IMG/VR virus record: IMGVR_UViG_3300026549_000040 | Location: 1-64,000 of that record | Strand: one strand, 5' to 3' | DNA length: 64,000 nt | Origin: a virus | Lineage: Duplodnaviria; Caudoviricetes | Part shown: in pieces, positions 3,076 to 45,564 of the stretch | Position numbering within the stretch: position 1 is the first letter of the stretch | Layout of the letters: every line of letters starts with the position of its first letter | The notes under the pieces: model-generated | What the model was told of the DNA's origin: nothing | Seen by the model: the letters and a program-made list of their open reading frames with translations, nothing else | The model's database searches: none | Program-made: the position numbers and the translations under genes

Positions 3076-3608
3076 GATTATTTGATATGGACAGTGAAGA
3101 AGATTATTTACTTGATGGAAAATACAAAGTAGCTACTCCTTGTGCCCCAGGTGTTAATGTTACTGAGATAGTTAAGTGTGAAAATTGTAAAAATAATCAA
3201 GGATGGGATAGCTTCTATGGGGGTTATTGGTGTGGTCAACATTTAGAATATATAACAGATGCTACCTATTATTGTGGCGCTGGTATACCTAAAGAAGAGG
3301 AGGAAAGTATGGAAGAAGAAAATATGAGAATAGGTGATATCGTATTTGTTCATGGTATTATTGATGAAATTCGTAACGATTGTATAATCATTAAAAATAC
3401 TGGTGGTTATTTTGGAACATCTAAGGATGAGATTGTACATTATTCACAACTTATGAAAAATGATATTATAAAGTGTAAAGAATGTGAATTCTTTAAAGAT
3501 GACTATATTTGTACTGCTGATGGATGGGATTTATCAGCTACTCATTATCCGAAAGTTGATGCTGATGGTTTTTGTCATAGAGCAAAACATAAGGAAGGAG
3601 TAAAATAA
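3072..3608 (+). CDS. hypothetical protein with two Cys clusters
   Basis: IVKCENCK...YCG and IIKCKECE...FCH. Confidence 0.6.
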   Translation: MRLFDMDSEEDYLLDGKYKVATPCAPGVNVTEIVKCENCKNNQGWDSFYGGYWCGQHLEYITDATYYCGAGIPKEEEESMEEENMRIGDIVFVHGIIDEIRNDCIIIKNTGGYFGTSKDEIVHYSQLMKNDIIKCKECEFFKDDYICTADGWDLSATHYPKVDADGFCHRAKHKEGVK

Positions 3609-3609
3609 T

Positions 3610-3804
3610 ATGGATGATAAGTATGTTGTTCAAGAAAAATGTACTAGACAAGATTGTTATTGGTACCATGAATATCAAGATATGAGTGCTAGAGTTCCAA
3701 CTTGTGAATATTATGGAGAATACGGACATTGTGATTGCACTGCTGATTGTAAACATTATGTAAGTAAACAAAAAGTAAATGATATTGTACGTAGTATATA
3801 CTAA
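3610..3804 (+). CDS. hypothetical Cys-rich protein
   Basis: AAGGAG RBS; six Cys. Confidence 0.55.
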   Translation: MDDKYVVQEKCTRQDCYWYHEYQDMSARVPTCEYYGEYGHCDCTADCKHYVSKQKVNDIVRSIY

Positions 3805-3822
3805 AAAGTATAGGAGCTTAAT

Positions 3823-4329
3823 ATGGACAAAGATATGATATTTAAAACGGCTGCACGTAAATCTTTTGAAGGACTAGCTTCATATAATTCTGGGTATGAA
3901 GTAGGAGTGAATGATACTTTAAAGTGTCTTAATATACTATATAATGATGTGTATGAAGAATTAGATCCTGGTTGGAAAAAGGCTTTTGGTAAAGAATTAA
4001 TCTTTGATCTATTAGAATCTTTACATAATGATGATTGTATAGGCTCTTTCACAGTATCTCAAGTGAAAGAAAAATTTGGGGAGTTAAGACTATATTTTGA
4101 AAATTATGGAGAAGATACGACTAATGTAATTGAAAAATATACTGAACTATCTAAATATATATGTGGTAATTGTGGTAAGCCTGCTAAATATATCACTTCT
4201 GGTTGGGTATATCCTTTATGTGAAGATTGCATACAAAAGATAAATGATACCAACTGTAAAGCAATTGAGGAAGCTTATGATATTTCTGATGTTATATCTA
4301 CTATAGATAAGATTAAAAATAATTATTAG
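3823..4329 (+). CDS. conserved phage protein (QVKEKFGELR motif + Zn ribbon)
   Basis: QVKEKFGELRLY...ICGNCGKP...GW..PLCEDC. Confidence 0.7.
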   Translation: MDKDMIFKTAARKSFEGLASYNSGYEVGVNDTLKCLNILYNDVYEELDPGWKKAFGKELIFDLLESLHNDDCIGSFTVSQVKEKFGELRLYFENYGEDTTNVIEKYTELSKYICGNCGKPAKYITSGWVYPLCEDCIQKINDTNCKAIEEAYDISDVISTIDKIKNNY

Positions 4330-4811: not shown

Positions 4812-5543
4812 ATGGACATTAAAAAAAGTTATTATGCTGTCGTCCCCGCTAGTGTCAGGTACGATAGTAATTTATGTGCGAACTCAAAATTATTATATGG
4901 AGAGATAACTGCTTTATGTAATGAAAAAGGTTATTGTTGGGCTTCAAATCAATATTTTGCAGATTTATATGATGTTTCAAAGATAACAATTTCTAGATGG
5001 ATTTCTTCTTTGGAAAAATATGGTTATATAAAAGTAGAACTTATTTATAAGTCAAACACTAAAGAAATAGAGTCTAGAAAAATTTGGATTGTAGATAGTA
5101 ATACTAATAGTAATTTATCTAATAGATCAGTCAATGAAAATGTAGATAAACCTGATACTAATAATGGTAAGCAGAGTACAGAAAAATATAAAGATGAAAT
5201 CAAAGAAATAATTGATTATTTAAATACTAGAGCTAATTGTAGATATAGGTATAATACAGAAAGTACTAATAAACTAATTAGAGCAAAACTGAATAATGGA
5301 TTTACTGTTGATGACTTTAAAGTGGTAATTGATACAAAAGTTAATGAATGGGTAGGTACTGAGTTTGAAAAGTATTTAAGACCTTATACATTATTCGGTA
5401 ATAAGTTTGAACAATATTTGAATCAGAAACATCCATCAAGATCTTTCGATCCTAAACATCCCACTAGACAAACTCCAGTTACAGAAGAACGTAATAATGG
5501 TGAGTTTTTCACAGACGATAATGGAAATATGATTACATATTAA
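4812..5543 (+). CDS. phage replication initiator (N-terminal HTH + conserved phage C-terminal domain)
   Basis: YYAVVPASVRYD..L...KLLYGEITAL...GYCWASN.YFA; C-terminal IIDYLN...YLRPYTLFGNKFEQYLN. Confidence 0.85.
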   Translation: MDIKKSYYAVVPASVRYDSNLCANSKLLYGEITALCNEKGYCWASNQYFADLYDVSKITISRWISSLEKYGYIKVELIYKSNTKEIESRKIWIVDSNTNSNLSNRSVNENVDKPDTNNGKQSTEKYKDEIKEIIDYLNTRANCRYRYNTESTNKLIRAKLNNGFTVDDFKVVIDTKVNEWVGTEFEKYLRPYTLFGNKFEQYLNQKHPSRSFDPKHPTRQTPVTEERNNGEFFTDDNGNMITY

Positions 5544-41482: not shown

Positions 41483-41511
41483 TTTACAATATTGTAATTG
41501 TATGTTATATT
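41483..41511 (+). promoter_or_regulatory. sigmaA-type promoter of the tRNA/ncRNA island
   Basis: TTTACA-N17-TATATT with TG extension. Confidence 0.65.
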
Positions 41512-41590: not shown

Positions 41591-41664
41591 TGCGGGATCG
41601 TCAAGTGGCAAGACAACGGGCTCATTACCCGTTACCGTAGGTTCGAATCCTACTCCCGCATCCA
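41591..41664 (+). tRNA. tRNA-Met(CAT), initiator-like
   Basis: Cloverleaf; GGG/CCC anticodon stem, U1-A72, encoded CCA. Confidence 0.85.
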
Positions 41665-41668
41665 ATAT

Positions 41669-41750
41669 GGGGATGCGATGGGCGTTCGACTCGGCTTAAA
41701 CCCAAAGTGAACTGTCGAGGACATCGGTTCGAATCCGATCATCTCCACCA
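41669..41750 (+). ncRNA. ssrA: mini-tmRNA: tRNA-like domain only, no mRNA-like domain
   Basis: GGGGATG...TTCGAC 5' end, G3.U70, P2a CTCGGC/GTCGAG closing an 18-nt loop, GAC connector, T-arm, CATCTCC-ACCA. Confidence 0.8.
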
Positions 41751-41764
41751 TATTAATAAATTAA

Positions 41765-41851
41765 GCGGCTGTGTCGGAACTGGCAGACGACTCGGACTTA
41801 AAATCCGATGCTCCTGTGAGCGTGTGGGTTCAAATCCCACCAGCCGCACCA
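41765..41851 (+). tRNA. tRNA-Leu(TAA)
   Basis: Cloverleaf with long variable arm, CCA. Confidence 0.95.
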
Positions 41852-41858
41852 AAGGAAC

Positions 41859-41913
41859 AGACACAAACAGCAAATATGATGTTCTTAATAGGGTAAAAAG
41901 ATATTGTGTCTAG
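41859..41913 (+). ncRNA. AACAGCAA stem-bulge element 1 (candidate Y-RNA-like)
   Basis: AGACAC-aAACAGCA-AATAT...ATATT-GTGTCT-AG. Confidence 0.55.
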
Positions 41914-41938
41914 GTAAGTTTTATAGGAGGAAGTAAGC

Positions 41939-43465
41939 ATGGGATTTGTTGAAAACTTAAAAGTAGAACAGAATAACGATAACGAAATGAATCTAACGGA
42001 AAACTTAGCAGTTGCATATAAAACAACTGGTGAGTATTTGTTAGATTTTAATTTTAAGGTAACGAATTTAAGACATTCAAGCTATGAAGATGTAGTTACT
42101 AACTTTAAGAAAGTTTACTACAGTGATAGCACAACAGCATTGAAGTATTTATTCTATGTTGGTGACATTAGATATGGTTTAGGTGAAAGACATATCTTCA
42201 AATCTTGTTTTAAGTGGCTTGCAGAAACTCATGGAGATAAAGTAAAAGGTCTTCTGTTTCTTATTCCAGAATATTCAAGATGGGATGTTCTTGTATCATT
42301 AATTAATTGTGATAATAAGAAGATACAGAAAGAAGTTACTAATATCATCCGTATCCAATTAAATAAAGATAAATATGGCATGCTTAATAACAGATCTATT
42401 TCATTACTTTCTAAGTGGCTGCCATCAGAAAATGCTTCTTCTAAAGAAACAAAAGAGTTAGCAAAGATTGTAAGAACCAATCTTAAAATGACTCCTAAGA
42501 AGTATAGAAAAACTTTGAGTACATTAAGAGCTTATCTTGATGTGGTAGAAACTAAGATGAGTGCAAAAGATTGGGATAAGATAGATTATAGTTCTGTTCC
42601 ATCAATTGCTAATATAAACTACTCAAATGCTTTTATGAAGCATGACCCACAGAGAAGAACACAATACTTAACTGATCTTAAAGAAGGTAAAACTAAGATT
42701 AATGCAGGTGTACTTCAGCCACATCAGATTGTATATAGATATGTTAATGGTCATGATGGGTGGTATAATGATGTTTCAATCAAGTATGATGAAACTTTAG
42801 AAGAACTATGGAAATCATTGCCAGATGTTTGTACAGAATCTACTTTAGTAGTTAGAGATGGTTCTGGTTCAATGTATACTTCTGTTAGTGGAAGAATAAG
42901 AGCTGTGGATGTTGCAACAGCACTTGCTATTTACTGTGCAGAACATACAATGGGTGAATTTAACGATAAGTTTATTACTTTTTCTTCTCGTCCTAAGCTT
43001 GTAGATTTATCTTATTGTGAATCTTTAGCAGATAAGATTGATAAAGCTTATCTTGAAACAGAAATGTCAAATACAAATATTTTTAAAACTATGATGTTGG
43101 TTTTAGATACTGCTGTTAAATATAAGATGAAACAGGAAGAACTTCCACGTAATATTCTTATTATTTCAGATATGCAGTTTGATGGTTCAAGATTTAATCT
43201 ATCAAAATCTTTATTCGATGAAATAAAGGACGAATTTAAGAAGTATGGATATAAAATGCCAAGAATTTGTTTCTGGAATTTAGATCCATATGATTCAGAA
43301 ACTATTCCTCTTAAGCAAAATGATAATGGTTTAATCCTATGTAGTGGATTTTCAATAAATAATTTGAATATGTTTATGAGTGGAGAGATTGATCCTCTTA
43401 AAGTCTTATTAGACATATTAAATTCAAAACGGTATGATGCTGTTGAAGCAGCAATAGATAGATAA
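41939..43465 (+). CDS. DUF2828-family protein (helical domain + vWA, Ro60/TROVE-like)
   Basis: LTEN.A.A...TG...LD, DIR.GLGER, KWLPSE, IDYSSVPS, MIDAS DGSGSM, ISDMQFD, FWNL, SGFS. Confidence 0.85.
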   Translation: MGFVENLKVEQNNDNEMNLTENLAVAYKTTGEYLLDFNFKVTNLRHSSYEDVVTNFKKVYYSDSTTALKYLFYVGDIRYGLGERHIFKSCFKWLAETHGDKVKGLLFLIPEYSRWDVLVSLINCDNKKIQKEVTNIIRIQLNKDKYGMLNNRSISLLSKWLPSENASSKETKELAKIVRTNLKMTPKKYRKTLSTLRAYLDVVETKMSAKDWDKIDYSSVPSIANINYSNAFMKHDPQRRTQYLTDLKEGKTKINAGVLQPHQIVYRYVNGHDGWYNDVSIKYDETLEELWKSLPDVCTESTLVVRDGSGSMYTSVSGRIRAVDVATALAIYCAEHTMGEFNDKFITFSSRPKLVDLSYCESLADKIDKAYLETEMSNTNIFKTMMLVLDTAVKYKMKQEELPRNILIISDMQFDGSRFNLSKSLFDEIKDEFKKYGYKMPRICFWNLDPYDSETIPLKQNDNGLILCSGFSINNLNMFMSGEIDPLKVLLDILNSKRYDAVEAAIDR

Positions 43466-43469
43466 AATT

Positions 43470-43535
43470 TAGACACGAACAGCAATTTGCAAGATCAGTT
43501 TTATTAGCTTCAGAAATAATAAAAATTGTGTCTAG
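43470..43535 (+). ncRNA. AACAGCAA stem-bulge element 2
   Basis: TAGACAC-gAACAGC-AATTT...AAATT-GTGTCTA-G. Confidence 0.55.
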
Positions 43536-43555
43536 TTCATACTTACCTCCTTTTT

Positions 43556-43638
43556 TAGGCCCTAACAGCAATCAATATGTTTTATAAAAGCTTGTTACTA
43601 TGTTTATTTAGAGAAAATACTTTTATTATAGGGCCTAG
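43556..43638 (+). ncRNA. AACAGCAA stem-bulge element 3
   Basis: TAGGCCCT-AACAGCAAT...AGGGCCTA-G; compensatory stem changes relative to elements 1 and 2. Confidence 0.55.
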
Positions 43639-43645
43639 CCTATAT

Positions 43646-44083: not shown

Positions 44084-44268
44084 AACTTCATGGCAATCCA
44101 ACATAAGTAGTTCTAGAACAATGCTTATGAGATAGCCGCCTGAAGCAACAGGTCGACTTTAATAAAGGGACGGAGTCGATACAACAATACTCACCGTGGG
44201 TTGATCACCACAAGAATTCCGGAAATATAGAGAAAGAATCCGTAGAACGAGCTTGAAGCCATGAAGTT
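44084..44268 (+). ncRNA. unclassified ~185-nt structured RNA
   Basis: 11-bp closing stem AACTTCATGGC/GCCATGAAGTT with several internal hairpins. Confidence 0.5.
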
Positions 44269-45487: not shown

Positions 45488-45564
45488 GGCTCCATAGTTC
45501 AGTTGGTAGAGCGGCAGGTTGAAGCCCTGCGCTTGCGATAGTTCAATTCTATCTCGTTCCACCA
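45488..45564 (+). tRNA. tRNA-Phe(GAA) with disrupted acceptor stem (pseudo-tRNA or decoy)
   Basis: D, anticodon and T arms intact; GGCTCCA/TCGTTCC has three mismatches. Confidence 0.7.

Follow-up and report, generated by a model that had tools for sequence, protein, structure and literature searches.

A TLD-only mini-tmRNA gene in a low-GC phage and its relatives in viral genomes

In a phage genome recorded in IMG/VR, 82 nt lying between two tRNA genes read like the two ends of a tmRNA with nothing between them. Is this stretch an RNA gene in its own right or the remnant of something longer, and what could a tmRNA without a template do for a phage? The DNA analysed, here called the window, comprises the first 64 kb of a record of 144,875 bp, which CheckV rated 100% complete. 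A preliminary description, made from the letters of the window, had taken the 82 nt for an alanine-type tRNA-like domain (TLD) of tmRNA that lacked the entire mRNA-like domain (MLD).

Parts of the RNA and model tests

The mini-tmRNA gene, including its encoded CCA, occupies 41669-41750 on the plus strand, as do all parts given below, and its base-by-base parse in the preliminary description proved exact. The 5' strand of the acceptor stem, GGGGAUG (41669-41675, with G3 at 41671), pairs at all seven positions with the bases at 41740-41746. The 3' end (41740-41750) consists of the acceptor strand CAUCUCC with U70 at 41744, A73 at 41747 and the encoded CCA at 41748-41750. The alanine identity set, namely a 7-bp acceptor with G3.U70, A73 and a 3' CCA, could thus be read directly. 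The stemless D-loop region (41676-41691) comprises CGAUGGGCGUUC, then G20 and A21 (to 41689), then C22-U23, and was aligned to the consensus GGaUUCGAC of the tmRNA model RF00023. In that alignment G20 and A21 take the tandem G.A/A.G positions of the model and C22-U23 are bases 1 and 2 of helix 2a; the GG of the D region was nearly invariant in our alignment of the family (A1). Helix 2a (41690-41719) pairs CUCGGC with GUCGAG in 6 bp, one of them G.U, and closes an A-rich loop of 18 nt (41696-41713) that stands in place of the pseudoknots, tag frame and stop. The loop contains the A-rich motif typical of the family, and the distal hairpin common among its members is degenerate in the window copy. 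In the GAC connector (41720-41722), G52 and A53 lie opposite A21 and G20 and C54 is unpaired, and the T arm AUCGG-UUCGAAU-CCGAU (41723-41739) has a 5-bp stem and a 7-nt loop. The minimum-free-energy fold of the single sequence (-25.2 kcal/mol) differs from the TLD fold (-20.5 kcal/mol), which is common for tRNA-like RNAs, and we gave it no weight.

RF00023 scored 51.1 bits on 41669-41750, above its gathering score of 47, with an E value of 3e-17 for the window. The alignment spans model positions 1-374 with its two ends only, 14 nt standing for 308 internal positions, and this is the ends-only Infernal hit that the preliminary description had predicted. The aligned parts were the acceptor stem, the D loop GG...UUCGAC, the tandem G.A/A.G, helix 2a, the T arm and ACCA. 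Because the 308 missing model positions include the pseudoknots, resume codon, frame and stop, the RNA is unable to template a tag. A search of all three frames over the 82 nt for a tag frame met stops or no usable frame, and no mRNA-like domain, that is, no resume codon, tag frame with stop or flanking pseudoknots, was found in the RNA. A one-codon tag, GCU-UAA, can be read in the loop of the window copy and of the close relative in L025; it is lost in the one in L094 and was rejected. The tRNA model RF00005 reached 24.1 bits against a cut-off of 29, a shortfall due to the lack of an alignable anticodon arm, which was left unmatched. ARAGORN called neither a tRNA nor a tmRNA at 41669-41750.

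The missing template was then sought in the rest of the 144,875-bp genome. No permuted two-piece tmRNA (RF04321) or separate coding piece was found elsewhere; the best RF04321 scores, 21.7-24.7 bits (cut-off 47), overlapped the mini-tmRNA itself, and the mitochondrial tmRNA model RF02544 gave no match in the genome at E <= 1. SmpB (PF01668) was also absent from the complete genome, so that neither of the two partners that had been considered at the outset, a phage smpB and a detached MLD, is encoded. We concluded that 41669-41750 holds a genuine gene for an RNA of the TLD-only (CDS-less) class of tmRNA, with all the sequence features of a tmRNA TLD and nothing of the template. Chance falls far short of explaining the match, and the RNA has relatives whose pairs covary.

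Relatives and conservation in phages

A sub-family-specific pattern retrieved only two further copies from IMG/VR, on contigs L025 and L094. Both are 82 nt long (RF00023, 54.4 and 57.5 bits, respectively), and a tRNA-Met is also located upstream of each. Apart from the mini-tmRNA, the DNA that these contigs share with the window genome consists of tRNA-like stretches and, for L094, one 74-nt element. All paired positions that differ among the three RNAs changed on both sides, giving three compensatory changes: a U-A pair of helix 2a in the window is A-U in L025, a G-C pair of helix 2a is A-U in L094, and a U-A pair of the T stem is C-G in both. The other differences are confined to the 18-nt loop. 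The close relatives thus carry the mini form and not full-length ssrA, contrary to the outcome that the preliminary description had named as refuting. As independent relatives keep the 82-nt form with compensatory changes, assembly collapse is argued against; judged from these sequences, the mini-tmRNA is neither a one-off deletion nor the product of such a collapse.

A search of wider scope used the pattern UUCGAC within 12-42 nt of GGAC, followed by a T arm and CUCCA, and gave at least 119 matches in IMG/VR. Among 120 viral matches listed, 115 were complete mini-tmRNAs with a perfect 7-bp acceptor strand beginning with GGGG 8-25 nt upstream; these RNAs are 64-85 nt long and at least 84 of them are distinct. 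The remaining five were partial pieces without the 5' acceptor strand. Conservation was scored only at positions free of pattern constraints. All 84 distinct sequences were paired at the three free T-stem positions, each of which showed four pair types (43% paired in shuffles), and positions 1-5 of helix 2a were paired in 94% across the same 84 (45% in shuffles). Acceptor pairs 5 and 6 each occurred as five pair types, and pairs 4-6 vary freely. Position 3 was always G in the 84 sequences, although the filter also allowed A.

When the acceptor 3' strand was left free in a second scan, 29 loci were added, 28 of which were complete mini-tmRNAs; G1-C72, G2-C71, G3.U70 and A73 were kept in all 28, for which that strand had not been imposed, and pair 4 varied. 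A partition scan in which A-U was required as the first T-stem pair yielded 31 loci, and all 15 new ones were complete mini-tmRNAs. Since the other 16 of the 31 were already among the first 119, this overlap suggests that about 230 IMG/VR contigs match the strict pattern. Altogether at least 116 distinct mini-tmRNAs were collected, most of them from viral contigs, and the same design was present in about 160 viral contigs. G1-C72, G2-C71, G3.U70 and A73 were invariant in all 116 distinct sequences. The modal length was 79 nt, or 82 nt with CCA, the same as that of the window copy. A long type made up 106 of the 116, with the A-rich loop motif in 86, and the other ten were short hairpin-capped forms of 61-71 nt. 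In a bacterial control (one genome per species, acceptor pair 4 free), only nine of 119 matches listed were complete mini-tmRNAs and the rest were 3' ends of ordinary full-length ssrA. Comparison of 115/120 viral with 9/119 bacterial matches therefore indicated that the mini form is strongly enriched in phages. The earlier identification as an alanine-type TLD without any MLD was borne out by the ends-only match, the lack of a tag frame and the invariance of the alanine set. These alignments indicate that the family is conserved by selection on structure, in which the alanine identity set is invariant and neighbouring positions drift.

Such results bear on the view that the 82 nt are a decayed relic without function, whether a deletion fragment of tRNA-Ala or ssrA, an attP-type ssrA fragment or a collapsed assembly of full-length ssrA. 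At attachment sites, 3' ssrA fragments are frequent in phages and islands, and the five partial viral matches among the 120 listed are pieces of that kind. In the window copy, on the other hand, neither acceptor strand is missing and the tmRNA score exceeds the cut-off; independent metagenomes yield the same 82-nt form with compensatory changes, and the size of the copy is the modal size of the 116 family members. In addition, the complete genome contains no tyrosine integrase, because of which an attP-type fragment was ruled out. We regard the relic explanation as very improbable.

The genomic settings of the family are diverse. A search for covarying homologues in phage tRNA clusters had been proposed at the outset. 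Covarying homologues do exist, but most members lie outside tRNA clusters, with tRNAs nearby at only 21 of the 115 viral loci listed. The commonest context, at 23 of these loci (12 distinct RNAs), places the mini-tmRNA between the genes for prohead protease and major capsid protein, on their strand. This arrangement, with a Peptidase_S78 protease, was seen in L107, L108, L006 and about 20 more loci, in small HK97-type phages. Other copies lie beside portal or terminase genes, or beside DnaB or exonuclease genes, and the carriers include L003 and L063, records of 15.4 and 15.6 kb that are rated 96-97% complete. A further 50 virus records with a mini-tmRNA, of which 16 have a completeness of at least 90%, likewise contained no SmpB. 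Among cultured phages (50,697 phage records, megablast and blastn) there was no full-length match and only T-arm/acceptor matches to tRNA-Ala and similar genes. A match in Ralstonia phage RSP15 was dismissed as an ordinary tRNA-Gly plus tRNA-Leu, and other large mini-carrying phages were rejected as kin of the window phage, their PolA being only 30-34% identical.

The position between protease and capsid genes might suggest a tRNA-like processing or punctuation element, that is, an RNase P or 3'-end processing site in polycistronic transcripts or a stabiliser of transcript ends, with no role at the ribosome. The largest context class, on the same strand as both neighbours, is what such an element would predict, and the window copy is packed between two tRNAs with spacers of 4 and 14 nt. 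Any tRNA-like fold would do for that purpose, however, which leaves the retention of the tmRNA-specific D loop, the G.A pairs, helix 2a and the alanine identity unexplained, and we consider this explanation unlikely.

The window phage and its RNA genes

The genome has a GC content of 31%, and the window encodes a module of DnaB, a family-A DNA polymerase, clamp and clamp loader, UvsX, SbcCD and the anaerobic NrdD/NrdG. Among cultured relatives, the polymerase is closest to that of a human-faecal phage fragment (55%), followed by those of Clostridium phages (41-42%) and Streptococcus phages (39-40%), and a 549-aa ORF with PHROG endolysin matches contains CHAP and PG_binding_1 domains. On the basis of the polymerase relatives and the endolysin domains, the host is probably a Gram-positive anaerobe. 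The phage is of lytic type.

ARAGORN found 18 tRNAs in the genome, all within the window and none of them a tRNA-Ala. A tRNA-Met(CAU) (41591-41664, plus strand) ends 4 nt upstream of the mini-tmRNA, and a tRNA-Leu(UAA) (41765-41851, plus strand) starts 14 nt downstream of it; both were called by ARAGORN and Rfam, and CCA is encoded in all three genes. About 80 nt upstream of the trio, a consensus scan identified a sigma-70-like promoter candidate, TTTACA-17-TATATT with a TG (41483-41511, plus strand), which is a consensus match only, at 10 of 12 positions. The simplest reading of this layout, and one we infer from it, is that the three genes form one tRNA-type operon whose transcript would be trimmed by the tRNA-processing enzymes of the host. 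The foot of the anticodon stem of the tRNA-Met has three consecutive G-C pairs (ACGGG/CCCGU), as in an initiator, and its 1-72 pair is U-A; the genome also encodes a second tRNA-Met(CAU) and a tRNA-Ile(UAU). A tRNA-like gene at 45488-45561 was detected by Rfam only (41.7 bits), with ARAGORN silent; its anticodon loop reads GAA (Phe), its acceptor pairs poorly by eye, and it may be a decaying or unusual tRNA. The 74-nt element shared with L094 lies at 44179-44251, flanked by tRNA-Ile and tRNA-Gly; it has 93% identity with L094:4546-4619 and may be a small RNA or the end of a mobile element.

The preliminary description had also connected the RNA with anticodon-nuclease defence. This idea found no support: the genome encodes neither RtcB nor an RNA ligase, and nothing therefore ties the mini-tmRNA to the repair of nuclease-cut tRNAs.

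The first gene past the tRNA-Leu (41939-43465, 508 aa) matches phrog_850 'RNA-binding protein' and the Pfam families DUF2828 and DUF7788, and we take its product to be a Ro/TROVE-like protein. Three hairpins flank this gene (41855-43640), each 5' strand being followed by AACAGCAA, at 41866, 43478 and 43564, and their stems differ by compensatory changes (AGACAC../..GTGTCT versus GGCCCT../..AGGGCC). A functional link between the mini-tmRNA and the DUF2828 protein was considered and rejected. Since the protein was found near none of 114 other mini-tmRNAs, their adjacency is not conserved.

In the two nearest relatives the surroundings contain further RNA. In both, a ROOL RNA (RF03087) starts about 24 nt downstream of the mini-tmRNA on the same strand: in L025 it lies at 3239-3835 (minus strand, 285.9 bits), and in L094 only its start (5230-5318, plus strand) is present before the contig ends. 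ROOL RNA is absent from the genome of the window phage. It is known from the literature to occur near phage tRNA islands, and no report of a direct adjacency of mini-tmRNA and ROOL was found in the literature searched. Between tRNA-Met and mini-tmRNA, L025 (3942-4319, minus strand) and L094 (4853-5097, plus strand) have in common a non-coding stretch of about 350 nt (nhmmer E 1e-8), to which Rfam assigned no family at E <= 0.01. Further upstream, both contigs have twister-P1-like matches below threshold (48.8 and 36.3 bits, cut-off 67.2).

Proposed role and comparison with known tmRNA forms

The pair G3.U70 together with A73 specifies AlaRS, and SmpB binds the D-loop/helix-2a face of the TLD, where it stands in for the anticodon arm. 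With a probability of roughly 0.55, we propose that the mini-tmRNA is an alanine-charged, host-SmpB-dependent competitor of the host tmRNA, which would enter stalled ribosomes and take over the nascent chain without a tag. In this model the RNA would be transcribed together with tRNA-Met and tRNA-Leu, trimmed by the tRNA-processing enzymes of the host, and charged with alanine by host AlaRS through G3.U70 and A73. Host SmpB would bind it through the D loop, the tandem G.A pairs and helix 2a; the host protein is proposed here since none is encoded by the phage. The complex of Ala-RNA, SmpB and EF-Tu would then compete with host tmRNA for SmpB and for stalled ribosomes with an empty A site. As the mini-tmRNA has no template, the nascent chain would gain at most one alanine and no degradation tag, and the net outcome in infection would be a block or a bypass of trans-translation and tagging in the host.

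The same RNA could act as a passive sponge that merely sequesters host SmpB and thereby shuts down trans-translation, without any part for aminoacylation or ribosome entry. The absence of SmpB from the window phage and from the 50 other mini-carrying records is in keeping with this possibility. A sponge needs no AlaRS identity, and yet G3.U70 and A73 are invariant in 116 distinct sequences while covariation is free at the acceptor pairs next to them. Replacing one base would convert G3.U70 into G-C or A-U with pairing kept, and this was never seen in the 116. Were charging irrelevant, the G.U wobble would be expected to drift to such pairs, for which reason a charged competitor is favoured and the passive sponge appears doubtful. 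According to PMC4131195 and PMC11915505, Mao et al. (2009, RNA Biol 6:355) found E. coli tmRNA to be strongly inhibited by a DS6A-like molecule, chargeable or not, perhaps via SmpB titration. Because that inhibition, as reported there, did not need a chargeable RNA, charging is perhaps not needed for the effect.

It is also possible, though we hold it only tentatively, that alanine charging is itself under selection and that the mini-tmRNA, more than a sponge for SmpB, is a template-less acceptor providing the phage with its own tag-free route of ribosome rescue, in the window lineage as part of an RNA quality-control island. The nascent chain would then gain one or repeated alanines and be released by Pth/ArfB-type factors or by drop-off. 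The other parts of such an island would be the tRNAs and the Ro/TROVE-like DUF2828 protein with its Y-RNA-like hairpins, and in L025 and L094 the downstream ROOL RNA.

A TLD-only tmRNA in a phage has a precedent. 'Mycobacterium phage DS6A (TLD only)' is an entry in the list of Hudson, Lau and Williams 2014 (PMC4131195), who suggest SmpB titration, and the tmRNA database of 2025 (PMC11915505) contains 79 phage sequences, nine of the form 'Standard, no CDS'; the DS6A form is tmID 11587 of the tmRNA Website. The preliminary description had stated that MLD-less forms are known mainly from protist mitochondria. That statement is weakened, as both the phage form and the SmpB titration idea were already published (PMC4131195, PMC11915505), and with the DS6A precedent in print the novelty had been overstated. 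The possible functions it had suggested, an SmpB sponge or tag-free rescue, agree with the published hypothesis. We located the DS6A copy at JN698994 28478-28560 (L126:1501-1583). It is 83 nt long, unannotated in GenBank, and scores 43.2 bits with RF00023 (cut-off 47), so that standard pipelines miss even the type example.

The window copy matches the DS6A type in being phage-borne, about 80 nt long, built of a TLD with a capped helix 2, and without a tag frame or a phage smpB. The two RNAs share the GGGG acceptor with G3.U70 and A73, the stemless D loop, helix 2a, an A-rich loop, which holds a small hairpin in the DS6A copy, the T arm and the lack of a tag frame, and neither phage carries smpB. 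They differ in that DS6A has GGUCGAC and GCAC where the window copy has the consensus UUCGAC and GGAC. The DS6A copy stands alone after gp33 with no encoded CCA, whereas the window copy lies between two tRNA genes and encodes CCA. DS6A is a high-GC actinophage, in contrast to the 31% GC phage of a probable Gram-positive anaerobe described here.

Compared with the one-piece SsrA of bacteria (RF00023), the window copy has the same TLD, with an alanine-identity acceptor, D loop, tandem G.A, helix 2a, T arm and CCA, but no pseudoknots, resume codon, tag frame or stop. An MLD-less mitochondrial tmRNA of jakobids was reportedly described by Jacob and colleagues in 2004. The MLD-less mitochondrial tmRNAs of jakobids and other protists (RF02544) and the plastid forms of about 65 nt (PMC11915505) are, like the window copy, natural template-less derivatives of tmRNA with SmpB encoded elsewhere. 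The mitochondrial genes are usually circularly permuted and of organellar origin, whereas the window copy is viral and has no RF02544 match. Synthetic TLD constructs used in biochemistry and structures with SmpB, EF-Tu and the ribosome are built from the minimal parts seen here, and according to PMC3895274 Shimizu and Ueda (2006) measured peptidyl transfer in vitro to a truncated tmRNA that consisted of the TLD only. The ten short-type mini-tmRNAs have nearly the same design as these constructs, which are laboratory truncations, while the window copy is a gene found in nature and has an additional loop of 18 nt. No description of the breadth of the TLD-only phage family was found in the literature searched. 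As the TLD-only phage tmRNA is already published for DS6A, the window copy adds an example and no new principle.

This type of mini-tmRNA is common in phages and yet unannotated: the literature names essentially one phage example, DS6A, whose own record leaves the copy without annotation, and ARAGORN missed the window copy. Complete phages as small as about 15 kb are among its carriers, and conservation of the alanine identity set is strict throughout; to these the window contributes a well-scoring copy from a phage of low GC content that has a tRNA cluster. Bacteria have in trans-translation their main system for ribosome rescue and quality control, and it is pursued as a target for antibiotics. 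If the mini-tmRNA does block or bypass trans-translation, a widespread natural phage RNA would offer a ready-made tool for doing so and a clue to what the phage gains.
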